Part shown: piece by piece, positions 16,201 to 57,265 of the stretch | Layout: each line of letters begins with the position of its first letter | Position numbering within the stretch: the first letter of the stretch is position 1 | Source of the DNA: Anolis carolinensis | Taxonomy: Eukaryota | Direction: 5' to 3' | DNA: 64,000 bases | Assembly: GCF_035594765.1 (NCBI RefSeq) | Contig: NC_085841.1 | Coordinates: 91,683,574 to 91,747,573, forward strand | Made by a program: the position numbers and the translations under genes | The notes under the pieces: generated by a model | The model's input: only the letters and a program-made list of their open reading frames with translations | Database searches by the model: none | Told to the model about the DNA's origin: nothing

Positions 16201-16756
16201 TAATTTGGGCATACTCACATTGCATTGGTTTAATGCTATAACAATTGATGGTATTGACTGATTGGTTTTTAAAAATACAAATGGATTATTAGTAATTGAT
16301 TAGATGGTTCAAGTTAAGTCATTGATAATGTATGGAGATTAATTAATTCATATGTATTTATGGTGGCTGATTAATTAATGAATTGATATTGGGGTTAATT
16401 GATTAATATATTTAATTAATTTCATGGGGTAATTTATTTAATATGCTATTGAGGACAATAAATTAATGAGATTCTCTATATAAATTGGGGTATTAACTTA
16501 TTGAATTAATTTTAATATCATGTTTATATAGTAGGTGCATATCAGTGTGTGGTATTGTATGCTTTAATTAAATGGATGCTTGGTTGCTTTTGATTTAAGA
16601 AATGTTAGTCGCTTCGGGTCCCTTGGCTTGGATAGGGTAGGGAGTTGGCTCATTCTAGTTTCTGCCAGCCCCCCCCCCCCCCCCACTTATTTGCTACTGA
16701 ACTTTCTTCCTCAATATTAACTTTTCGTGGTCTTACTGAACTTCTTATTTTGCAGT

Positions 16757-18109
16757 ATGCCACCGAAGAAGAATGTTGGGGGGCCTAAGGGCAAGGGACC
16801 TGCGAAGAAGATTCCAGCAAAGCGCCCGCCTCCACCAAGTGGTCCTTCAACCGAGGATGAAGATTCTGCACAGTTGTTGGGAGTGTTGGTCGCCCGGATC
16901 GAGGCACTGGAAAGAGAGAAAGCAGCGGCTGCTGCTGCGGAGGCGCAGAAGGCTGGTGGGGGCAGTAACACCGGGTTAATTAGGTCCTTATTTTCCCGTA
17001 TTTCTGCCTTAGAAGGGGAAAGGAGTGCTGCAGTGCCTGTCGCTGATGCGGGCCTGGTTACATCTACGCCGGTGACCGCTGAAGCTGTTCCATCTACTTC
17101 GGCGGCAGCAGCTGAGATGAGAAGTGCCGTATCCGCTTTAGGTAAAGGGGACACACACACTTTCCCTTGGGGAGTGGCAGACTCTCAAGATCTTATCACA
17201 ACCCAAGCACGTGACGAGCCTGTTCCATCAACCAGCGGCACGCAATTAGCTATCGTGGCTCCGGTGGTTGAGACACCAAGCGTGGTGGTAGCCTCTTTGG
17301 ATTCAACACCTACTATTGAGAATTCTTTGTGTTTTTGGGGCACGGCTGATTGGCCTTTGCCGGCCTCCGATAGCCTTAGTGCTACAGCTTTAGGCTCGCA
17401 TTTGGCTCAAAAGACAATTGATAAAATTTTAAGGAATGAATACATCGACATTTTTACCCTGTATTTCAGGGAACTTGATAAGAAAGAAAAAGATGATTTA
17501 GATGATGAAAGAAAGGAAATTATGAAAAAACGCAAAGTGGACCAGAATTGGGGCAATTGGTTCTCTTGCTTTTTAATTTACGGAGGGGTTCTAGTGAAGG
17601 CTTACCCTTCCAGAGCCCATTCTCTTTTTCAGTACATGAACATTATCAATTCGGCTTATGTAAATTTTACAGGTAGCGCTTGGCTCTTGTATGACAAGCG
17701 CTTTAGGCTTCGTGCGGCTCACTCTCCAACTTTGCGCTGGGATTTGATTGACCATCAGCTGTGGTTGGAGGTTCTAACTCCGGCACGTCCCGTTGCGGGC
17801 GAGAAGGCCGACAGTGGGCACACAATTCAAAATTCTCGAGCTGGGCAGTCCTTTCGTCAGCATCCATATTCCCAGTATCAGCAACCACAGCAATCTCAAC
17901 AACGCTTGCTATGCTGGGAATATTCTTCGCAGGGAGTTTGTTCCCGAAGAGGTTGCAAGTTCCAGCACGTTTGTGCCATCTGTTCAGGGCAACATTCTTC
18001 CAAATTTTGCAGTAAGGGAAAACCTGGTAAGGGTGGGGGAAAGAGTAACCACGATCCCAGGAGAGGTTTCGGCTCAGGTGGGTTTTCCAAAGGGGCCCAG
18101 CCCAATTAA
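16757..18109 (+). CDS. Ngaro ORF1 Gag-like protein
   Basis: ATG at 16757 (MPPKK...); basic N-terminus; putative coiled coils (LVARIEALERE, LFSRISALEGE); WLLYDKRFR...W block; C-terminal Cys/His knuckle CWEYSSQGVCSRRGCKFQHVCAICSGQHSSKFC. Confidence 0.85.
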   Translation: MPPKKNVGGPKGKGPAKKIPAKRPPPPSGPSTEDEDSAQLLGVLVARIEALEREKAAAAAAEAQKAGGGSNTGLIRSLFSRISALEGERSAAVPVADAGLVTSTPVTAEAVPSTSAAAAEMRSAVSALGKGDTHTFPWGVADSQDLITTQARDEPVPSTSGTQLAIVAPVVETPSVVVASLDSTPTIENSLCFWGTADWPLPASDSLSATALGSHLAQKTIDKILRNEYIDIFTLYFRELDKKEKDDLDDERKEIMKKRKVDQNWGNWFSCFLIYGGVLVKAYPSRAHSLFQYMNIINSAYVNFTGSAWLLYDKRFRLRAAHSPTLRWDLIDHQLWLEVLTPARPVAGEKADSGHTIQNSRAGQSFRQHPYSQYQQPQQSQQRLLCWEYSSQGVCSRRGCKFQHVCAICSGQHSSKFCSKGKPGKGGGKSNHDPRRGFGSGGFSKGAQPN

Positions 18110-18478
18110 TCTAGTTCAGTTAGATTTGTGGTTATCCAGTTATCCCAATTTAGGCGCAGCTAGTTATCTGCGTGCTGGGTTTTTTGAGGGTTTTAGGATT
18201 CCTGCAATGGGACATAGAGCTCCTTTCAGGGCACCGAATCTGAAATCCGTTATTGGCATGGAAGACGTTGTCCTTGCTAAAATCAATAAGGAAGTTGCAG
18301 AGGGTAGGGTTCTTGGCCCATTTAGGTCTCCTCCCACTCCTAGGTTAAGGGTTTCACCATTAGGGATTGTTCCAAAGAAGGCACCAGGGGAGTTTCGACT
18401 CATTCACCACCTTTCCTATCCCAGGGGAAGGTCAGTGAATGACGCGATTCCTGATGATTTTTGTACAGTCCACTATAC
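18090..18478 (+). CDS. Ngaro ORF2 reverse transcriptase, N-terminal part (interrupted by a solo LTR)
   Basis: DIRS-type RT motifs KINKEVAEGRVLGPF, VSPLGIVPKK, FRLIHHLSYP, SVNDAI. Frame is +1 relative to gag and open from 17793; the true start is unknown. Confidence 0.9.
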
Positions 18479-19454
18479 TGTGATGAGTCATGGGCCATGT
18501 AGTCCCGTTCATGGCACTGTAGTCCCAGATGAAGAGGAGAACTTGGGTTTTTCACCGTCTCAGTCAGAATTGGAACCTTCCCAGCCAGATTTGGGAACCT
18601 TGCACCTGCAAGAGATTTGTCTTCCAGAAATCTGTCAAACAAGCCCTGAGTCTAAATCTCCTGTGTTTTCTCGCCACGAGTTTTGTAAACATCAGAGAGC
18701 AGTTCAAGCGGCCTCTCGTAGGAGTGCTAGGATAGCTGCTAAGAATTCAGCTGATTAAGCCTGCTTTCCATGGGAAACCTTAAGGAGTCATGCATCTGGA
18801 CTCAGAGATTAGCTTTCGTTTCTAGTTCCCCAGAGAACTGCTCTTTGGTGGGAAAACTAGACCCTATTTAGGTGTTTTACCCACAAAGGCATCTTGCGGA
18901 GTCAATTCGTCAGCTACTGGAGTGAGTTGTGTGTGGACAGCGCGCTCCGTTTCCAAGCCTCGTTCCTGTTTCAAGCCTTGTTCCTGATTCCAAGCCTTCG
19001 CTCCGTTTCCAAGCCTTCGTTCCCGTTTCCAGCCTTGTTTACCTCCACGGACCTTGCCTTGTTTTCCAGGACTCAGCCTTGCCTTGTCTTCCGGATTTTG
19101 CCAAGTAATTCCACGGATCTTGTTCTCGCTCCTCGTTCCTTGTTGCCTTGTATCAAGCCTTGTTTCAAGTTATTTCCTAGCCTTGCTCAAGTTCATGGAC
19201 TAAAGGACCTTGTCATCTCCCCTCACTTTGCCTGGCAAAGTGAGTGTTTCGGTTATTGGATTACAACTTTGGACCTTAATACTTCATATTGGACATTGTT
19301 TCTTTGGACTAATTTTGACCTTTCCTGAAAGGTCTAATTCTGGACTATTTTCTACACTTGTTTTTATTAACTTTATATACTCCTTCAATAAAGATATTAG
19401 ATAGATTCTGGCCTCTGTGTATGGTTATTGGTGCCCTGCAGCCGGGTCGTGACA
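18479..19454 (+). mobile_element. Solo LTR, family A copy 1 (probably Gypsy-type), 976 bp
   Basis: TGTGATGA...TCGTGACA termini; perfect 5-bp TSD TATAC (18474-18478, 19455-19459); AATAAA near 19387; homologous to 35293-36198. Confidence 0.92.
18483..18758 (+). CDS. Putative 91-aa LTR U3-encoded protein ending in RRSARIAAK (copy 1)
   Basis: ATG at LTR position 5; same length and same stop as copy 2; only synonymous changes across the C-terminal motif. Confidence 0.55.
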   Translation: MSHGPCSPVHGTVVPDEEENLGFSPSQSELEPSQPDLGTLHLQEICLPEICQTSPESKSPVFSRHEFCKHQRAVQAASRRSARIAAKNSAD

Positions 19455-19459
19455 TATAC

Positions 19460-20663
19460 TTCTTTTGATTCGGCGGTTAGGAAAGTTAGATCTAGGGGGC
19501 CGGCGGCAGAATTGGCAAAGTGTGACATCAAGTCTGCTTTCCGGCTACTGCCTGTACATCCGCTGGACTTCGAGCTGTTGGGTTTTCAGTTCAACGGGTT
19601 GTACTATATGGACAGGGCTCTTCCCATGGGCTGTTCAGTTTCCTGTGCTGCTTTTGAGTCCTTTAGCACCTTTTTGGAGTGGGCCCTTAAATCAAAATCG
19701 GGTTTATCGGGGGTTGTGCACTACCTGGATGATTTTTTATTTATAGGGATGTCTGGTTCTGGAGAATGCGAATTTCTTCTGCATTCTTTTCAGGAACTGG
19801 CCGATCAGTTAGGGGTTCCCTTAGCCCCCGATAAAACAGAGGGCCCGGCTACTAAATTGACCTTTTTGGGGATTGAGCTTGATACAGTGCAGCAAGCCTC
19901 CAGTTTACCTAGGGAGAAAGTTTTTAATCTAGTATATAGGATTCGAGCTTTTGTTACCCGTAACAAGGCCACATTGCGGGAGTTTCAGGAGCTTATTGGG
20001 CATTTAAATTTTGCATGCAGAGTCATAGCTCCTGGGCGTCCTTTGTTGCGCAGACTCTGCGATGCTATTTCTGGGGTTAGACTTCCGCACTATCATGTGC
20101 GGATTACACGTGGGATCAAAGCTGATTTGGACATTTGGTTACAATTTTTAAATCAATATAATGGGATTTCCTTTTGGAGACAGGATCTTTTGTTGAAGGA
20201 TGCTCTTCAGATAGCTTCTGATGCTTCTGGAGCCATCGGCTTTGGTGTATTTTTTAATGGGCATTGGTGTGCCGAGCTTTGGCCCAGGGAGTGGCATACC
20301 AAGGGTATAACGTCCGATTTAACATTTTTGGAGTTTTTTCCAATTTTGGTGGCTGTCACGCTGTGGGCTGATCAAATGACAAATTCCACCGTTCATTTTT
20401 GGTGTGATAACCAGGCTACGGTGCAGGTTATCAATTCTTTAACATCTAAGTCAGTCAGACTGATGAAGGCTTTGAGGTTTTTTACACTCCACTGTCTAAA
20501 GTATAATATGTTTAAAGCTTTTCATATTGCAGGGACAGATAATTCTCTCGCTGATGCTCTGTCCCGTATGCAGATGGATCGCTTCAGGCAGCTTGCCCCC
20601 AGCGCAGATTTGCACCCCCAGAACATGCCGGTCCATCTTTGGAAAATTGGGAACAGTCCATAG
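19460..20663 (+). CDS. Ngaro ORF2 RT core and RNase H
   Basis: RT motifs KCDIKSAF, LPMGCSVS, HYLDDF, FLGIELD; RNase H motifs SDASG, FLEFFPI, WCDN, NSLADALSR. Removing the LTR and one TSD gives in-frame ...DDFCTVHYTSFDSAV... Confidence 0.95.
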
Positions 20664-21553
20664 TCCGGGGAATGAAGTTGGCTTTGGCCACGACTTCCAG
20701 AAAATCTTACGTCAGAGCGGTGCAGGAGTTTCATGAGTTTAAAAAGTTGTATGCCATAAGTTCTGTTTCACCGATTCCATATGAGCACGTCGCACAGTTT
20801 GGTGTTTTTCTGGAAAGGAAGGGGTTGGCCCCTCAAACTATTCGTGCGAAATTATCTGCCCTGGCTTATTGGCTTAAGGCTCAGGGCTTTCCAGATGTTA
20901 CAGCCGATTTTAGGCTTCGCAAATGGCTGGAAGGTTTGTCGCGGGAGCAGGTTAGGCCACGTGACTGCCGTCAGCCATTGACACCTGAAATTCTCAAAGG
21001 CTTAAAGCAAATTTGGCCCAAAATTTGTGAATCTCATTACGAAGCTTTGCTATTGCAGGCAGCGGCTCTCACCGCTTTCTTTGGGGCTCTTCGTATTAGT
21101 GAGCTGGTCGCCTCTTCAAAGGCTGATCAATCTAGAAGGGCCTTGCAATTTTCGGACCTGCGGCTCCAGCAGGACAAATTGGAATTGTTTATCAGGACTT
21201 CTAAAACGGATCAAAAAGGGAAGGGTTCCATTATCAAATTGGGATGCTGTAGTGATTTGGAATTATGCCCAGTTGCAGCTTTGTCATCTTTTGTGTCCTG
21301 CAGAGGAACGTCAGCTGGTTTTCTTTTTTGTCATTGGGATGGAGCACCGTTGACAAAATACCAGTTCTGGGCCTTGACTTCTAAGGCCTTAGGAATGTTG
21401 GGTATCAAAGATCAGAAATTTGGTACTCATTCCTTTAGAATTGGGGCTGCTTCCACTGCTGCTGTTATGGGCTACTCTATAGACAAAATTAAGATGTTGG
21501 GAAGATGGAAATCTGGTGCCTACCATGCGTATGTGCGTCATATATCGGATTAG
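20639..21553 (+). CDS. Ngaro ORF3 tyrosine recombinase
   Basis: Catalytic set present: FFGALRISEL (R), SKTDQ (K), THSFRIG (HxxR), GRWKS..YHAY (W, Y). First ATG at 20672. Confidence 0.95.
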   Translation: MENWEQSIVRGMKLALATTSRKSYVRAVQEFHEFKKLYAISSVSPIPYEHVAQFGVFLERKGLAPQTIRAKLSALAYWLKAQGFPDVTADFRLRKWLEGLSREQVRPRDCRQPLTPEILKGLKQIWPKICESHYEALLLQAAALTAFFGALRISELVASSKADQSRRALQFSDLRLQQDKLELFIRTSKTDQKGKGSIIKLGCCSDLELCPVAALSSFVSCRGTSAGFLFCHWDGAPLTKYQFWALTSKALGMLGIKDQKFGTHSFRIGAASTAAVMGYSIDKIKMLGRWKSGAYHAYVRHISD

Positions 21554-21557
21554 TTAT

Positions 21558-22175
21558 ATGGCTTTTTGTTTTTCAGAACCCACCCTGTTGGCAAGTAGAC
21601 GACGCGTCCTGATTTGCGGGCACAGTTATGTGCACTGGGCAGAGCGACAGGCGCGCAGAGGTCCCTACGGCCAGCATCTCGGCCTCGCTTCCTTGGCTTT
21701 TGTTGAATGGAGGGGAAGAAGAGGTCTGCGGTGGGAGGGTTTGCTCCCTTTGTTGTTTGGGTCAGGGGTCCGTTTTCCACCTGACCTTATTGTTATGCAT
21801 TTGGGAGGCAATGATTTGGGGCTGCTTAAAGGCAGGGCCCTTTTTCTCCAGGTTTTAAATGACATGCACAAGATCCAGGAGGTGTGGCCTCATACCGGAT
21901 TGGCATGGTCAGCAATTATTCCTAGGCCACGTTGGCCCTATGGGGACGGTAAAAAATTGGACAAAGCAAGGAAACGGGTCAATAGGGCCCTGCGGAAGGT
22001 TTTGGAAAATGGCATGGGTTACTATATCCCTCATGACACCATTAGATTCAATGATTCGACGATGTATCGGACTGATGGGATCCATCTGTCCGAACTGGGC
22101 AACCAAATTTTCTTAGCGGATCTGCAGAAAGGAATTAGGGAAATTCTTTCGAATTTGGTGGGGGTCAGGAGCTAA
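21558..22175 (+). CDS. Ngaro ORF4 SGNH/GDSL-type hydrolase
   Basis: Block I ICGHSY, block II GRRG, block III HLGGNDL, block V DGIH. ATG at 21558; splice-acceptor-like TTTTTGTTTTTCAG ends at 21576. Confidence 0.9.
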   Translation: MAFCFSEPTLLASRRRVLICGHSYVHWAERQARRGPYGQHLGLASLAFVEWRGRRGLRWEGLLPLLFGSGVRFPPDLIVMHLGGNDLGLLKGRALFLQVLNDMHKIQEVWPHTGLAWSAIIPRPRWPYGDGKKLDKARKRVNRALRKVLENGMGYYIPHDTIRFNDSTMYRTDGIHLSELGNQIFLADLQKGIREILSNLVGVRS

Positions 22176-33191: not shown

Positions 33192-35292
33192 ACCTGGTAT
33201 TTAGATGCTAGTGTGATCACTTCGCACATAGAAAGGGGGGGGGGGGATATTCATCAAGACCTAGAAAGTAGATACATTACTAATAACCTTCCCTTATTTT
33301 ATTACATGAGCAATGGAGAAGTTTAGCACCATAACTCTAAATACAGAACAGGTTGCTCAGAAACAGGTGCTAAGCAAATGTAATCAACACATCCACAATT
33401 GGCTCCACAGAGCTTCCAACAAAACCATTTGCCATTGTGCCAGGAGCAAAAAAGTCTTTGAACTTGGCAAGTAAGAATGGTCAGAAGCCAGCTATCTGGA
33501 GAAAGACTATATTAGAGTAGTTAAATCGGACTGCCAAAAAATGAAACAAAAAGAAAATCCTGGAATGGGTTTTTGGGAGAGTCTGTTTTATGTAGCTCTT
33601 TCTGAAAGGCAGCAATGACTGGCACAATGTTCAGTAGCATTGTTTCCAAGGGCATTATGTCCTGGAAACATGGTTGAATAGCCAAAACATCCCTTGAAGC
33701 TGCAACAAGTCTTGAAACATAAAACAGAACAACATATAGTGAAATCCTCTAATCTATCACATATATCAAGGTAAGACCATCCCTTCTGAAATGCTTAAAA
33801 ATTCACATACTCCTATGTTGACTGTACTTTTTCTTTTGTTTGATGGCTTGCTTGGGCATGGATTCTAGAGCTAGCAATCTACCTGTTTCAGATGCTTAGT
33901 TACCTGGAAAGTTACCCCTGCAGATGCACAAATAGCATTCTAATGGATGACTTAGTGATTTCCTCTAAAATATGATATGAGCTTGATATGATATGATATC
34001 AGCTTGAGTAAATATCCTATGAAATACTTGTTGATCTTGTGTGTCTTCAAGTCATATCATATAGATAACAAAATGCGTGCAACAGTTATTTCTATAACCA
34101 TAAGTTAAGAGATTTAACCAAACAAGTACAAAAGACTCTCAATTAACTGGGGGATTGGTAGATGCCAGAAAAATGGTTTCTTCTATACCTTAAACCTGGG
34201 ATACTGAGGTACTCTGGAGGGTGGCTACCCAAGCCAGCCAGAACCTGACTGGTGAATGTCACCCAGAAGTAATTTCAGAATTCTTCAAAAACAAGAGAAG
34301 TCCCAGCAGACTTGTAGAGGGCAAAAGGTTATCCCTATCTTCAAGAAGGAGGGGGAAAGGACCCAATTATCATCTACCCAGCCTGACATCAATATCAGGA
34401 AATTTTCTGGAGTACATCATCAAGGAGGCAGTCTGCAATCACTTAGAAAGGAATGCTGTGATTATAAAAAGTCAACATGGATTTCTCAAAAACAAGTCGT
34501 GCCAGACTAATCTTATATCTTTTTCGATAGAGTTACAAGCTTGGTAGATGCAGGAAATGATGTGGATGTAGCGTATCTTGATTTCAGTTAGGCCTTCGAC
34601 AAAGTCCCCCATGACCTTCTTGCAAACAAACTAGACAAATGTGGGATAGGTAATGCTACAATTAAGTGGATCTGTAATTGGTTAAGTGACCAAACCCTAA
34701 GGGTGCTCACCAGTGGTTCCACTTCATCCTGGAAAGAAGTACCGTATACACTTGAGTATAATCTGACATAAATATTAGCCGAGGCACTAATTTTACCATA
34801 AAAACTGGGAAAACTTATTGACTGTTGCACCCCTAGGCTGGGTAGGCACCTCAAAACCACACTGAAGTCGCAGAATATAAGTAAGCAAGCTGTTTATTGA
34901 AGATTATATGCAAGCAACAGAATATTAAAGTTCAGATTTAATAAAAAGGATTTAAATCCACAAGAACAAAGTACTTGATAAATGTGAATCACGAATCTAT
35001 AAAAGTCATTCAAAGAACATAGTCCAAAATGGATATCAAAGTAAGTCCCATGAAAGGTATCACTAATAGTCCAAACAAGAGTTTCAAGGATTAATCCAAG
35101 GCATGAACCAAACTGGAAACACAGGAAAATACACTGGAATGCAGGAACAAGACTCCAAATTTCGTGCAAGGTACAGAGTCCAAGATGGATCACACAACAA
35201 GGGTCTTGATTGGAACACAAGGCAAAGGTCTTGGCTGGAACACAAATCCAAACTAGAAAAACCAACTGGAAACACAGGAAAAAGCAAGGCTG

Positions 35293-36198
35293 TGTGATGA
35301 CTCATGGGCCATGTAGTCCCGTTCCTAGCGCTGTTATGACAGATGAAGAGGAAAACTTAGGTTTTCCACTGTTTCAGCCAGAATTGGAACTTTCCCAGCC
35401 AGAACTGGAGCCCTTGCACCTGCAGGAGATTTGTCTTCCAGAAATCTGCCAAACAAGCCCTGAGTCAAAATCTCCCCCATTTTCGCGCCGTGATTATTAT
35501 AAACAACAGAAAAGCGCTCAGGAGGCTTCTCGCAGGAGCGCTAGGATTGCTGCCAAGCATTCAGCTGATTAAGCCTGTTTCCCATGGGAAACTTTAGGGA
35601 GTCATGCATCTGGACTCAGAGAATGGTTTTCGGTTCTGGTTCCCCAGTGAATTGTTCCTTGGCGGGAAAACGAGACCCTACTTAGGTGTTTTGCCCTCGT
35701 AGGAATCTTGCGGAGTCAATTTGTCAACTACGGGAGTAAGTTGTGTGTGGACTACGCTCCCGTTTCCAGCCTCGCCTTGCTTCCCAGGACCTCGCCTTGT
35801 TTCCCAGGACTTTGCCTTACTCCCCGGACCTCGCCACGAATTTACCACGGATCCTGTTTTTGCTCCTTGTTCTTTGTTGCCTTGAATCAAGCCTTGTGTC
35901 CAAGAATCAAGTTATTTCCTTGCCTTGCCTAAGTTTCATGGACTAAAGGACCTTGTCATCTCCCCTCACTTTGCTTGGCAAAGTGAGTGTTTCGGTTACT
36001 GGATTACAACTTTGGACCTTAATATTTCATATTGGACATTGTTTCTCTGGACTAATTTTGACCTTTCCTGAAAGGTCTACTTCTGAACTATTTCCTACAC
36101 TTGCTTTTATTAACTTTATATATTTCCTCAATAAAGATATTAGATAGATTCTGGCCTCTGTGTATGGTTATTGGTGCTCTGCAGCCTGGGTCGTGACA
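35293..36198 (+). mobile_element. Solo LTR, family A copy 2, 906 bp
   Basis: TGTGATGA...TCGTGACA; perfect TSD GGCTG (35288-35292, 36199-36203). Confidence 0.92.
35297..35572 (+). CDS. Putative 91-aa LTR U3-encoded protein ending in RRSARIAAK (copy 2)
   Basis: Colinear with 18483-18758, no indels, 66 of 91 residues identical by hand count. Confidence 0.55.
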   Translation: MTHGPCSPVPSAVMTDEEENLGFPLFQPELELSQPELEPLHLQEICLPEICQTSPESKSPPFSRRDYYKQQKSAQEASRRSARIAAKHSAD

Positions 36199-37819
36199 GG
36201 CTGGAACTTTAAACAAGATACAAGGCTGCAGAGATACACACAAAGCAAAGATCTTCCTTCTTGAATTAGCAATGTTACCACCTCTGGCTGTGTCAGAGAA
36301 AGCAAGGCTTCTTATGGGAAACTCAAGGTCCCATACCGTGAGAAGGTTGCTCATTAATTTGTTTCAAAAGCAGATGCCTACTCCTCCTAATACACTCCTT
36401 TTCTTTTCTCAACTGAGTTATTGCTCTCCTCCTGTCCCGCTCATTATCCCTCCCCGCTTTATCAGTTCCTACATCCAAACTAGAATGTCCATCTGACACC
36501 TGGAGATCCGACCTCGACTGCTGTGAGGAATGCAATTCAAACTGCCTGCTTGCAACCATTTTGTCTCTGGTCCCAGAATCCACTGGGACAAACTCTGGCT
36601 GCATCTCAGGCCCAAACCCAGAGTCCTCTGGAAAGGCAGGTGGGGGAACAAACTCTGGCTGACAAGGCAGGTGCAGGGACAATCACAGGCTGAAAGGGGC
36701 CAACCTCAGGCTTGCCTGACAGCTCAGATGGAGGCTGGGCTACAACACTGACTCAAGTATAAGCCGGGGATGGGATATGCAGCAGCTACTGGTAAATTTC
36801 AAAAATAAAAATAAAAAAGATAGCAATAAAATTACATTAATTGAAACATCAGTAGGTTAAATGTTTTTGAATATTTACATAAAACTGTAATTTAAGATAA
36901 GACTGTCAAACTCTGATTACCTATATACTTGAGTATAAGCCAACCCGAATATAAGCTGGCCAGGACCCTCACTCGAGTATAAGCCAAGGGGGGCTTTTTC
37001 AGTCCTAAAAAGGACTGAAAAACTCTGCTTATACTTGAGTATATATGGTAATTAATGGAAAGCCACAGGGTTCAGTCCAGGGCCCAGTGCTGTTCACTAT
37101 CTCCATTAATGACTTGGATGAAGGCTTAGACGGTATTCTCATCAAGTGTGTAGATGACACCAAAATAGGAGGGATAGTTAAAACTCCAGATGACAGGATC
37201 AGAATTCAATAATGACCGTAGCAAATTAGAGAGCTGGGCCAAAATTAACAAAATGATTTTCAACAAGGACAAATGTAAGATACTACATTTAGGTAGAAAA
37301 ATGAAATGAAAAATACAGAATTGGTGAATAGTCCATGTGAAAAAGATCTTGAAGTCTTTGTGGACAACAAGTTGAACATGAGCCAACAGTCTGGTGCAGC
37401 AGCTAAAAAAGTCAATGAGATTTCAGGCTGCATCCCTAGATCGAGAGAAGTCATGATGGCTCTCCATTCAGATTTGGTTAGTCCTCACCTGGAATACTGT
37501 GTCCAATTCTGGGCACCACAGTTTAAAAATATATTGACAAGCTGGAAGTTGTGACCCACCTCAAACCCTGAGGAAAGGTGGGTAAGAAATATATTAATAA
37601 TCATAAAGGCAGGTAAGAAATAAAATAAGATATAACAACAACAACAACAACAGTGGTTGCTTTTTTAAAGGAGCTAATACTATACCCCATACTATACCAT
37701 TCCGCAAACTTTGTATTGGCTTAATATTAATATTGAAATACAGTTTTTAAAAGCAAATGAAGATAAATATAAACATAAGTGTATGTAACAGTTTTACAAA
37801 CATAGCTTTCTTGAATATA

Positions 37820-44520: not shown

Positions 44521-45510
44521 AGAAGTAACCATTTACTTTCTACATGTCACTTGGTTGAGCCCATGCGTTTTCGCCTCTACTATTTTAAGTCAGTGAGGTC
44601 TGCATCTCTAGCATTCTACATTATTATTTTTAAAATTATAATACATTTTAATACAACTTATGGTTTTAATTTTATCTACATTTTAATCATGTTTTGAATC
44701 ACCACCTTGTGTCTCAGTATTGAGAGAAAGATTGGGAATCCTTATAAAATGCATACATACATACATTCTTGGATCTTCATGCCTCAACACTGAAAAAGCA
44801 CTCCAGGCCACAATCTAATTTTGAACTCCAGCTATGGAATGCATCATCAATATTCTTATATTTTCTTATTGTCAAGTTGTCCCTCCACCCACCCACCTAA
44901 TACAGTCCAGCTGTATAATGCTGTGGATCAGACTTGTATCAAGATTGAAAGAACTCAGCTTCCTAGCAAGTCTAGTTATCTCTATTGATTTTTAATAGGT
45001 TTTTAGGCTCTGAAGCACTGTGTGTTTGCCATTGACAATCTAACCAAGAATCAATTAAGTTAATTGAGTCAGGTCACACAAGTAACTCAATGGTAGAGCC
45101 TGGGGGGAAACCTGTTTTTGAACTCATCTGCAGAAAAGATGCAATTGTGTTGTTTCCTTTAAAAAAACAACAACACATGGACCTCTGAAATAAAGCTATT
45201 CACCCTTATTTATTTATCATGTCAGAAGCGAACTGAGGATACAAGTTTTAATGTATTTGAAAACATAAAGTTTTAAAAACCTAACAACTTGGCATTATAA
45301 CCCTGTCAGATACAAATAAAAGAAAATGCTTAATCGTGAAAGAAATACGGAGTCAAAAGATTTATTTGTCTTACTTTGGAACATAACTTCCTTGATTGAG
45401 TGATCACAAATCTGTGCAGATGATACCTCAAGGAAGTCTAAGAGACTATGGTATCATATATTATTACAGCCCCACATGCCAAACTACACATAGGGCCAAG
45501 GGCTGATATA

Positions 45511-45833
45511 TAGTAGAGTCTCACTTATCCAACACTTGCTTAGCCAACGTTCTGGATTATCCAACGCATTTTAGTAGTTAATGTTTTCAATACATTGTGA
45601 TATTTTGGTGCTAAATTCATAAATACAGTAATTACTACATAGCATTACTGCGTATTGAACTACTTTTTCTGTCAAATTTGTTGTATAACATGATGTTTTG
45701 GTACTTAATTTGTAAAATCATAATGTAATTTGATGTTTAATAGGCTTTTCCTTAATCCCTCCTTATTATCCAACATATTTGCTTATCCAACGTTTTGCTG
45801 GCCCGTTTATGTTGGATAAGTGACACTCCACTG
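45511..45833. mobile_element. pogo/Tigger-like MITE, 323 bp
   Basis: (T)AGTAGAGTCTCACTTATCCAA ... TTGGATAAGTGACACTCCACTG with TA flanks; same family as 50355-50677. Confidence 0.9.
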
Positions 45834-49297: not shown

Positions 49298-50354
49298 AAC
49301 AATAGCATAAAATGTAATAAACAAACGGTGCATCTACACTGTAGATTCCATGCAGTTTGACACCACTTTAACGGTGTCATCCAAACTTAAATGTCAAAGA
49401 TTGAAAGCGTATCTAAAAAGGTCAAGACCAGATTTTATTTTTTTGCAAGAATTTCACCAGGTGGGTGGTCGTAATGAAATTCATCTGGATTGGATAGAGC
49501 ATTATATAAAGGGATTTGGAAGTTCTAAAGCCAGGGGGGTTGCAGTGTTAATCTCACAAAGAGTGGGTTTTAAGATTGATTTAATTGAGAAGGATGATGA
49601 AGGGCGATTTTTGATAATTAAGGGTACAATAAATAATGAGGATTATCTGTTAGTGAATATCTTAGCCCCAAACTCAGGCCAAAGGGATTTTTTTAGAGGG
49701 GTTGACAAGAGGATTAGAAAAGTACAAACAGACAATATGATTGTGGCAGGGGATTTTAACACAACATTTAACCAAGAATTGGACTCATCATCACATCATG
49801 TATTGAGAATAATGAAAGCTATATACATATTATTCAGCAGTGCACAAGGTATTCACAAGAATTGATTATATATTCATAACACCATCCCTAACAAAATATG
49901 TTAAAGAAGTCAATGTAAATTTAAATTCTATAAGTGACCATCAAGATGTGAATATGGTATTAGAATATCAAATTGACTATGAGCCCCTAAAAAGAATGTG
50001 GATGGACATAAAGATTATTAATAAAAATTTTATAAGGGGAAATATTTTAAGAGAATGGGCAGAAATATCGGAGTTGAATGAAAGGGAACCCCCTTCATAT
50101 GAGGTGCTTTGGGATGCAATGAAAGCAGTTTTAAGAGGATTGTTTAGTAAATATTCAGGTATACTGAAGAAACAGGAAAGGGAACATGAGAACCAACTGA
50201 TAGGTGAAATAAAAAACCTTGAATCAAGGTACTTGTTAACAAAGGATCTGAAGATTATAAATAATATTACCAGATTAAAGAAAGAGTTGCAGGCTAAAGA
50301 TATAGAAAAAGTTAAAAAAGACATGATGTATACAAACAGATATTATTTTGAATA

Positions 50355-50677
50355 CAGTAGAGTCTCACTTATCCAAGCCTCGCTTATCCAAGCCTCTGGA
50401 TAATCCAAGTCATTTTTGTAGTCAATGTTTTAAATATATCGTGATATTTTGGTGCTAAATTCATAAATACAGTAATTACAACATAACATTACTGCGTATT
50501 GAACTACTTTTTCTGTCAAATTTGTTGTATAACATGAAGTTTTGGTGCTTAATTTGTAAAATCATAACCTAATTTGATGTTTAATAGGCTTTTCCTTAAT
50601 CCCTCCTTATTATCCAAGATATTCGCTTATCCAAGCTTCTGCCGGCCCGTTTAGCTTGGATAAGTGAGACTCTACTG
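50355..50677. mobile_element. pogo/Tigger-like MITE, 323 bp, inserted in L1 ORF2
   Basis: Perfect TIR CAGTAGAGTCTCACTTATCCAAG with TA TSD; removal restores L1 YYFEYNNKSSKLLA. Confidence 0.92.
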
Positions 50678-52489
50678 TATAATAATAAAAGCTCAAAACT
50701 GCTGGCAAAAATAGCACAGACAGAAAAGGAAAAAAGGGAGATTGGAAGTATCAAGGATAGTAATGGTAGCTTATGTGCCAGAATGGTAGATAAAATCAAA
50801 GCAATACAGGATTTCTATTCCAATATGTATAGAGGAAAAGAAGTAGATATAGCCGAGCTAGACAAATATCTGGAAAAAATTTAGGCAAGTGAGACACACA
50901 GTAAGGAAATGGAGATGTCTATAACACAAGAGGAAATTAAAGACACAATAAACAAATTAAGGAAGGGTAAGTCACTAGGCGAAGATGGTATGCCAGCTGA
51001 AATCTATACCCAAATTACAGAGATTGTTCAATGAAATATTGAGGGGGAAACCCATTCATGGAAACATACTAGGATAATATTGATACCTAAACCTGGTAAG
51101 GACAAATTAATATTAGACTTGTAGCGCCCTAATTCTCTAATTAACCAAGACACAAAAATTTTCATGGCAATTTTGGCCAATAGATTAAAGAATTTTTTAA
51201 AGAATTATATTAACCCGGACCAATGTGGGTTTGTTAAGGGAAGACAAATGTCTGACTTGGTCCGTAGAGTGATAAATATTATAGAGAATGCCAAAAACGA
51301 GAAAGCTCAGGTAGGCATTTTTGCATTGGATATATATAAAGCCTTTGATACAGTAGGGTGGGTAGTGTTGAAATCTCTAATTAAAAAATATGGTTTTGGA
51401 GAGGGTTTCCAACATATAATAGAACAAATATATTCAGAAAACAGGGCTAAAGTCATAATTAATTATTCGGGTACTGAATCTTTTAGTATTAAACAAGGAG
51501 TAAGGCAGGGTTGTCCTCTTTCCCTGGTATTATTTATTTTAGTTATCGAATTATTAGCTTCTGTGATTAGGGGACAATAAAACCAAAATTAGCTTATTTG
51601 CGGATGATACACTTTTGACAGTAAGGAATCCAGATAGGGCACTAGACCGGATCAATCTACATTTAAAGCAGTTTGGAAAAATAACAGGTTTAATAATTAA
51701 TGGGAAGAAAACGGAGGTAATGACAATAAACCTGGAGGGAAAGGACAAAGAGAAAATAATGGATCAATTTAAGGTTAAGATTAGAAGCAAAATTAAGTAC
51801 TTAGGCGTTACAATACCTGTAAATTATTCAGAGTTAAAAAAATTAAATTTTGATAGACTATTTAGGGAAAGCCAAGAATGAAAACTGGAATATAAAAAAA
51901 AATTAATCTCTCATGGTTTGGTAGAATTGCAATTTTTAAAATGAAACTATTATCTAAATTTAACTTCCTATGTAATATTTTACCTATTAAATTACCAGAG
52001 GTTGATCTTTAAAAATGGCAGAAATTAGTTAATGAATTTTGTAATGGAACTACCAAGAGGCTTATGGTATATTTCACAGAAATTAGGGGGATTAGGAATA
52101 CCAGAATTAAAAACCTATTATGAGACACATATAATAAAAGGAGTGTTTAGGCTGCTCTTAGAACCTAAATTAATCTGGCGGGAACTGGAAGGAAAGTGTT
52201 GGCAAAGAGATTAAGTGGATATGTTTTTCTTGTCAAAAACTGGCAAAGTAATTAAGGGGTGTAAAAACAACCTGTGTAAAGAGGTTATGGAGACATGGGA
52301 TAAGTTAAGAAATAAGATATTTCCAGGAGTTTCTCCTCTAACTCCAATAGTCCTACTGGAAAAATTTCCAGAAGATCTGAGAATTAAACTTAAGAATAAA
52401 AAATTAGTGGAGGTGGAAACTGCTCTTTCTTGGAAGGAATGGATACAAAATTCAAGAGGCAACTTGATCCTGGAATTCAACCCATGATT

Positions 52490-56194: not shown

Positions 56195-57265
56195 CAGAGG
56201 AGGTCCAAGGTAATTTTAAAGTATAAGCGAACAGAGATTTTGGTGCCCCTCCCCCAAAACCAATAATAAACCAAAATAAAAGCATTGGATAAGTGATAAT
56301 GTTGGATAATAAGGAGGGATTAAGGAAAAGCCCAAATAAAGAACAACAGGGGAAATCCAGACAGGAAGCAATCAGGGAGAGCTAACACCTCCCAAAAAAG
56401 ATTCTCCCAGGCAAGAGGAAGCCAGGCCTTGAAGTCACAGGGCCATTAAATGCTAATCAAGTTGATTAATTACAACATCCACACATGCCTCCCAACAGAC
56501 AAGAGCTCTTTCTCCCACCCTGGACATTATTCCACAAACAAATAAACTCCACTTGCCTTGCTTCCAACAGACAGCAGCAGGCTCCGAAGTGCCCGACATG
56601 GGCTCCGGAAGGCCCGCCTGGCCCACTGGAAGGGCTGATGCGGGCTCCAGAAGGCCCAGAGTGGGCTCCGAAAGGTCCGCCCAGCCCACCCAAAGGGCTG
56701 AGGCGGGCTTCAAAAGGGTGGGCTCCGCAGAAAAGCGGGATTTCTCTGCCTGGCAAAGTGGAGATCAGCTCCCTTCCACCCAGAAGGAAGCCCATCTCCA
56801 CCTTGCCATGCAGAAACGCCGTGTTTCTGGGTGGCAAAGTGGAGATCTGCTCCCTTCTGCCCAGAAGGGAGCAGATCTCAACCTCTCCATGCAGAAAGGC
56901 GGCGTTTCTGGGTGGCAAAGTGGAGATCAGCTCCCTTCTGCCCAGAAGGGAGCCCAACTCCACTTTGCCAATCAGAAAAGCCACATTTCTTTGCTTGGCG
57001 AAGTGGGAATCGCCTTCCTTCTGGCCAGAAAGGAAGCGATCCCCACCTCGCCAAGCAGAAAAGCGGGGTTTCTCTGCTTTGCAGACTGGGGATCACCTCC
57101 CTTCTGGCCAGGAAGGCGATCTCCACTCTGCAAAGCAGAAAAGTGGCGTGGGGATAGTTTTTTGGGCTGCCGCCGCCACCGCCGCTCGGGGCGCCTCCAT
57201 GGTGCCCCGGAGAACAATGCGCCACAGGCGACGGCCTAATTGGCCTTGCTGATGGACCGCCTCTG
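56195..57265 (+). mobile_element. Composite non-autonomous hAT element with captured MITE and Penelope fragments and a palindromic minisatellite
   Basis: TIRs CAGAGGAGGTCCA / TGGACCGCCTCTG (12 of 13 match); perfect TSD GGTGTCTG (56187-56194, 57266-57273). Confidence 0.88.
56752..57145. repeat. ~81-83-bp tandem repeat, about 5 units, each self-complementary
   Basis: Units start at 56752, 56833 and 56914 (period 81): GGCAAAGTGGAGATC..CCCTTCTG/CAGAAGGG..ATCTCCAC.TTGCC. Confidence 0.85.

Follow-up and report, generated by a model that had tools for sequence, protein, structure and literature searches.

A putative integrase tail with an HMGN-like motif encoded in the long terminal repeats of squamate chromoviruses

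Short motifs that bind the H2A/H2B acidic patch have been described for HMGN proteins (RRSARLSA), tardigrade Dsup (RRSSRLTS) and yeast Dot5 (RRSARIAT) (PMC13347269, PMC12480509), with the arginines at positions 1, 2 and 5 of the Dot5 motif being needed for nucleosome binding (PMC13347269). In foamy viruses, the arginine anchor of Gag is reported to shape integration sites (PMC12125541, PMC9040877). A Pol frame that enters the 3′ LTR and encodes a targeting domain there is described for the plant CRM group A and the Beta Bingo/Beetle chromoviruses (PMC3059260, PMC3605345). How vertebrate chromoviruses reach and choose chromatin has been little studied. We compared these systems with a solo LTR of Anolis carolinensis and its relatives.

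The family B LTR and its reading frame

The window, a stretch of 64,000 nucleotides of the A. carolinensis genome (NC_085841.1, positions 91,683,574 to 91,747,573), harbors a solo LTR of the family termed B here and two of family A (Table 1). An earlier note on this DNA, made from the sequence alone, placed the start of the family B LTR at 36747 on the minus strand; this start holds, and the LTR furthermore continues to 34823, past the nested family A LTR, giving a whole of 36747-34823 (1014 bp with the nested insert subtracted). The nested LTR carries a tail frame of its own (35294-35572, with RRSARI at 35531-35548). A first look at the genome returned 1598 candidate copies of family B, the best 39 of the other copies being 88-92% identical, and the TSD matches at four or five of five positions in 48 of the 56 two-ended copies. 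Family A is represented by at least 12,184 LTR starts in the Anolis genome.

Table 1. Positions of the LTRs and of the frame and motif described in the text
Feature	Position	Strand	Remarks
Family B solo LTR, 5′ piece (starts TGTTG)	36199..36747	-	genome copies compared
Family B solo LTR, 3′ piece (ends CAACA; AATAAA at 34898-34893)	34823..35292	-	
Left 5-bp TSD of family B, GTCAG	36748..36752	-	right copy GTCAA at 34822-34818
Putative integrase-tail frame, first part (LTR base 2 onward, no start codon)	36661..36746	-	ends at 8-nt deletion private to the window copy
Putative integrase-tail frame, second part (Pro/acidic linker, basic stretch, stop)	36323..36660	-	
HMGN-like motif position, RRSRHL in the window copy	36371..36388	-	position 5 is an Arg codon in many other copies
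Nested family A solo LTR, TSD GGCTG	35293..36198	+	orientation opposite to B; splits the B LTR
Second family A solo LTR, TSD TATAC	18479..19454	+	inside DIRS-like element; same tail frame

A family A LTR start also lies within 1.1 kb of the B start in six of 73 other family B copies (L023, L172, L176, L198, L231 and L250), compared with 0.5-1.0 expected from the genome-wide density; a control on the upstream flank gave two, likewise above expectation, and regional clustering may be a partial cause of the excess. Other repeats of the window include a DIRS-like element (16721-22175, +) with a gag-like ORF, a reverse transcriptase (RT), a tyrosine recombinase and a further ORF, into whose RT frame a family A solo LTR is inserted. 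A decayed LINE ORF2 (49311-52487, +; endonuclease and RT recognized by eye) is broken by a 300-bp repeat also found at 45508-45807, and an array of 81-83 bp units at 56727-57147, which also pair as inverted repeats, harbors long open frames on both strands.

The earlier note had reported an ORF at 36682-36323 carrying the basic motif, a neighbouring frame open from the LTR start and, between them, a single frameshift. The translation is as reported, with RRSRHL at 36388-36371, and the frame is real, but the first seven residues of the ORF are out-of-frame sequence. Compared with four of four natural copies, the window copy has an 8-nt deletion near 36661, and upstream of it the frame running from LTR base 2 (VVAQPPSELSGKPEVGPFQPVIVPAPAL) is one and the same as that of the ORF; the deletion explains why two neighbouring frames were noticed. 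Family B typically reads RRS[RK]RLLL, with a fourth residue that is mostly R or K, inside a long basic stretch. Most copies follow the HMGN-like consensus at positions 1-3 and 6, while position 5 is occupied by arginine or by products of CpG decay. The histidine found there in the window copy had been attributed to a decayed arginine codon, and the fifth codon among 74 distinct B-type copies (CGT 23, CAT 16, TGT 13, CGG 5, TGG 4, TGA 3) bears this out, as its spectrum is the symmetric pattern of CpG decay. The window copy itself is a fossil, which is unlikely to be translated.

The frame is continuous across the family: no codon column carries a stop in half of the 74 copies, compared with six and 15 such columns in the other sense frames and two to four in the antisense frames, and the frame is uninterrupted between base 2 and the end of the basic motif in 12 of the 74. 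With one natural B copy as coordinate frame and CpG sites excluded, pN/pS of the tail frame is 1.03 among close pairs (1143 pairs), 0.76 among middle pairs (1186) and 0.59 among distant pairs (372; 95% CI 0.42-0.80, from a bootstrap over codon columns only and optimistic because the pairs are non-independent). The value for close pairs is that of decay after insertion. The other two sense frames yield 1.30 and 1.58. The antisense frame sharing third positions gives 0.64, yet all antisense frames contain fixed stops and the tail frame contains none. Between B subfamilies, the tail frame has been under purifying selection as a protein.

U3 regions carry enhancers, and both frame and motif could be by-products of constraint on such an enhancer at the DNA level, without any protein role, a reading to which the neutrality of close copies lends itself. 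It is, however, largely refuted and scarcely probable: pN/pS is below 1 in a frame-specific manner between subfamilies, four of five indels shared among B copies keep the frame versus 24 of 66 private ones, and the motif codons change between families, alternating between CGN and AGR, while the residues remain constant (in rows picked for carrying the motif). The R-R-S-x-R-[LI] core is kept across families, while the linker varies in length and sequence.

The enrichment of RRS.R[LI] over antisense and shuffled controls, which the earlier note had proposed as a check, was found in 58 LTR starts of the Anolis genome, selected solely by a 14-nt LTR-start pattern and including some chance matches. 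The strict motif occurs eight times in sense and never in antisense (shuffle mean 0.12; 4/28 clusters), and a decay-tolerant form occurs 26 times in sense and once in antisense (shuffle mean 1.44; 12/28 clusters). Many further old LTR families that start with TGTTGTA (L113 and others) also have an acidic frame with a decayed RRSxRL at its end; one TGTTGTA-starting family has an A-like end, RSARIAAR, after just ~50 residues.

Pol of the tail-bearing clade crosses into the LTR

As the frame is open at LTR base 2 without a start codon, read-through from the element interior was suspected. At the family A loci with a chromodomain, Pol continues past the chromodomain and the polypurine tract (PPT) into the LTR, where it ends RRS[AL]R[IL]AA, and in full-length elements the Pol frames, 1160-1366 aa in length, continue through the LTR as far as the motif. 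A sister-family element (L268/L383) reads from the chromodomain to RRSARLARK with zero stops. On the family B side, a fourth search pattern recovered two loci (L230 and L238) at which a chromodomain and the same PPT end precede the 3′ LTR of a B-like family, the L238 tail sharing 39% identity with the B tail (pairwise E 1e-15). In L370/L379, a chromodomain (PF00385, E 1.7e-11) is in frame with the U3 frame of family B, with a single stop in the spacer. PF00385 is above the cut-off in L379 and also in L391, an in-frame B junction from which the first LTR bases are missing. An off-frame junction is seen in L386, the element with the 5′ LTR most similar to the window copy, and another element interrupts L389/L390. 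In L415 and L419, a family B 5′ LTR is followed by gag and pol colinear with the family A gag and Pol (tblastn). From this colinearity and the Pfam content of the 86%-identical protein P0002, family B has the order gag then PR-RT-RH-IN, in copies that are decayed and partly deleted. Its LTRs furthermore have the TGTTG..CAACA ends and short TSD of chromovirus LTRs, and its chromodomain lies in front of the PPT, at the C-terminal end of the integrase. Family B LTRs are those of elements with gag, pol and a chromodomain, and the Pol of this clade extends past the polypurine tract into the LTR.

The genome searches yielded no intact element of family B. Two PPT patterns and one tRNA-PBS pattern gave solo LTRs or chance matches only in the loci fetched, and for one B search pattern 58 of its 75 genome places were examined. 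Two candidates for the B interior were rejected, namely the recurring sequence after GGGGTGCAACA, which is the interior of a LINE, and a Gypsy element near L119, which is a separate insertion. A BEL/Pao origin was likewise rejected, with A or B LTRs at none of 20 DUF5641 loci (blastn, both strands). Among 451 candidates, none was a longer protein containing the B tail. Against Pfam the B tail had no real match, leaving the LTR-encoded tail of 80-150 residues without a Pfam family; a PDB search gave nothing beyond the chromodomain, and the tail of a Podarcis relative had only weak Atlas matches (best 0.78).

Whether the tail is in frame with the chromodomain was scored at 64 distinct chromodomain-PPT-LTR junctions from all fetched loci, 53 on the family A side and 11 on the B side. 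Forty-seven are in frame, including only five of the 11 on the B side, and the strict motif is found 52 times in sense and never in antisense. Junctions with G runs of at least seven are off frame in 12/19 cases, compared with 5/45 of the others (Fisher p 5e-5). Pure G runs in the chromodomain-PPT spacer (L292-L310, L370, L386, L090 and L095) differ in length from one similar copy to another and shift the tail in or out of frame, perhaps through replication slippage or assembly error. Three elements of different LTR families (L072, L230 and L238) share an off-frame spacer of 58 nt that ends Pol at the LTR start. This common spacer, together with long G runs that vary even among similar family A copies (71-75 nt), could mean that Pol on the B side natively stops at the LTR edge and gains the tail only when the ribosome or the polymerase slips in the G run, so that two forms of integrase would be made. 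We consider this improbable, since the off-frame spacers of 58, 60, 61 and 64 nt scatter around the in-frame lengths of 59 and 62 nt, the in-frame spacing is kept in Podarcis, and old copies have other frameshifts as well. The off-frame junctions more likely stem from decay or from slippage in the G runs, and assembly error in the runs may contribute. From one B junction in frame, one in frame but damaged and one off frame, we infer that intact family B would have made the Pol-tail fusion.

The earlier note had treated the frame as a stand-alone ORF of U3. It is instead, with high probability, the C-terminal part of Pol, an integrase tail reached by reading on past the polypurine tract. An independent small LTR protein translated from its own ATG, comparable to the accessory genes in retroviral U3, would account for in-frame ATG codons at one position in 65/74 and at another in 60/74 B copies, and for the ATG at codon 2 of family A. 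The ATG positions differ between families, however, the frame is open from base 2 without a start codon, and the tail continues the Pol frame at most junctions. The frame furthermore lies within the first 430 nt, a long way ahead of the AATAAA of the 3′ piece, the only one found there, and so probably upstream of the promoter; a separate protein is very improbable. The tail has no match to the HMGN family of Pfam, and its frame is fused to Pol rather than forming a free-standing small protein.

Distribution of the tail and motif among relatives

A tree of 36 rows and 435 RH-IN-chromo columns, with a fungal root and without a non-chromovirus outgroup, unites all tail-bearing families (A, B and the sister families) in a single clade (UFBoot 100), to which an element of Podarcis is sister (UFBoot 99). 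Family B nests with A and Podarcis among the chromoviruses of frogs, fish and fungi, placing its Pol within the chromoviruses, and two tail-less Gypsy lineages of the Anolis genome fall outside the tail clade. A and B are therefore not independent witnesses: with a single tail-bearing clade, the motif is common to both by descent rather than by convergence. The suggestion that the layout is clade-wide and not due to chance stands, but it does not extend to lizard or vertebrate LTRs in general. Pol stops at or before the LTR in two further Gypsy lineages and in two BEL families of the Anolis genome. The Pol of Podarcis muralis has the same in-frame spacer of 19 residues, the acidic linker and RRSARL. 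Predicted proteins of A. carolinensis and P. muralis that already include the tail are found in UniRef as 'Gypsy retrotransposon integrase-like protein 1', a generic name that makes no mention of it, and the UniRef match to the family A tail protein, from a cluster of 366, is 86% identical over the whole query region.

The survey of relatives covered the best 120 of 640 Pol relatives, with taxa taken from names and eight proteins dropped that had no chromodomain anchor. Among the 120 listed, the motif follows the chromodomain in three of four squamate and one of 11 amphibian proteins and in none of 52 fish, four fungal and 41 proteins without a taxon name. Among 150 representatives at 50% identity, 136 of which were anchored, it occurs once, in P0182. 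This chromovirus has a very short tail, with RRSARIAAR directly after the presumed LTR edge, which suggests that the motif also occurs outside the lizard clade. A chromovirus protein of Rhineura has an acidic tail with KRGRP but no RRSxRL, indicating that not every squamate lineage requires the motif.

In the corresponding position, 44 of the 52 fish proteins among the relatives listed have RGRP, which we take to be AT-hook-like. Its presence at the same site suggests that chromatin-binding motifs may be interchangeable there. The fish chromovirus integrases (P0027, P0033, P0046 and others) read PxPRxRGRPRRR, followed by a short tail ending REPSPE[YF], which also appears to cross into the LTR.

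A possible acidic-patch anchor and its known counterparts

Taken together, the frame is a real, selected feature that likely represents a new, functional variant of chromovirus integrase. We favor, with some reserve, the reading that it forms the C-terminal tail of chromovirus Pol/integrase within the U3 of the 3′ LTR, and that its RRSxR[LI] serves to fix the integration complex to the acidic patch of the nucleosome. Once the Pol tail is granted, an acidic-patch role for the motif is reasonably probable, to which the arginines essential in Dot5 (positions 1, 2 and 5) contribute, as they are the conserved positions of the lizard tail. The tail would stay attached to the integrase, with the flexible acidic linker letting the arginines reach H2A/H2B while the chromodomain reads a methylated histone tail, so that chromodomain and arginine anchor would together give a two-point binding of the nucleosome. 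Counting against this reading are the low in-frame share on the B side (5/11), the shared 58-nt spacer, the off-frame L386, the lack of an intact B element among the loci recovered, the KRGRP of Rhineura and the single occurrence of the motif among the 136 anchored representatives. A predicted structure of the B tail with Anolis H2A/H2B scored 0.02 (mark 0.34) and carries no weight in either direction.

The main rival also places the basic end on an integrase tail, as a nuclear localization signal or a plain DNA-binding patch whose HMGN likeness is incidental. It is stronger for family B, in which two basic clusters are present (DRRR...RKEKE..RRSRR), residue 4 is usually R or K, and the basic stretch around the motif fits such a signal equally well. 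A C-terminal nuclear localization signal is also indicated for the Ty1 integrase by titles cited in PMC3605345. In family A and two sister families, however, the motif reads RRSAR[LI] with a neutral fourth residue, lysine rarely takes the place of the motif arginines, and Ser 3, Arg 5 and Leu/Ile 6 persist from family to family and in Podarcis while the basic residues around them change. As such, we hold an incidental likeness to be unlikely overall, and continue with the acidic-patch reading.

More broadly, this squamate clade may pair an LTR-encoded, HMGN-type acidic-patch anchor on the integrase with the chromodomain, with fish elements using an AT-hook-like motif in its place; on this view the end of the integrase would be an exchangeable site for chromatin-binding motifs of host type and would determine where the elements land. 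This joint proposal is about as likely as not. If correct, it would constitute a new mode of chromosome attachment for such elements and would place a transposon beside Dsup and Dot5, the few examples of HMGN-like motifs outside HMGN itself, with a six-residue motif of known biochemistry spread across a clade of thousands of LTRs. Because copying places U3 at both ends of the element, each solo LTR retains a fossil tail, which explains the thousands of solo LTRs with a conserved frame: their U3 is both regulatory and coding, which matters for the annotation of ORFs in reptile repeats.

Among the literature matches listed, drawn from sources without Repbase reports and most subscription papers, none connects an HMGN-like motif with the integrase of a retrotransposon, so that a prior mention is possible. 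In the accessible part of a paper on LTR structure that covers the Sushi clade, the terms 'ORF' and 'open reading frame' are absent (PMC3601003). With HMGN, Dsup and Dot5, the lizard motif shares the R-R-S-x-R-[LI] core within a low-complexity region; the RRSARIAA of family A agrees with Dot5 in seven of eight positions, and a sister family reads RRSARLAR. It differs in being located on a retrotransposon integrase, in the RRS[RK]RLLL of family B and in lacking an HMGN domain match. The likeness to foamy virus Gag, KSHV LANA and CMV IE1 is that a short arginine motif would tether an integrating genome to the acidic patch (PMC9040877, PMC12125541), whereas theirs are located on Gag or nuclear antigens and follow other consensus sequences, and the lizard motif would be on an integrase and paired with a chromodomain. 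With CRM group A the lizard clade shares a Pol that extends into the LTR, in frame at nearly three quarters of its junctions. In CRM the CR motif replaces the chromodomain, whereas the lizard elements keep the chromodomain before the PPT and have the HMGN-like motif inside the LTR; CRM group A is furthermore a plant centromeric clade, from which chromodomain and host set the lizard elements apart. The closest likeness of organization is to the vertebrate chromoviruses (Ty3/Gypsy, Sushi-like), with gag-pol, a C-terminal chromodomain, TG..CA LTRs and a 5-bp TSD in common, from which the lizard elements differ in that the named fish relatives have a shorter tail with RGRP.
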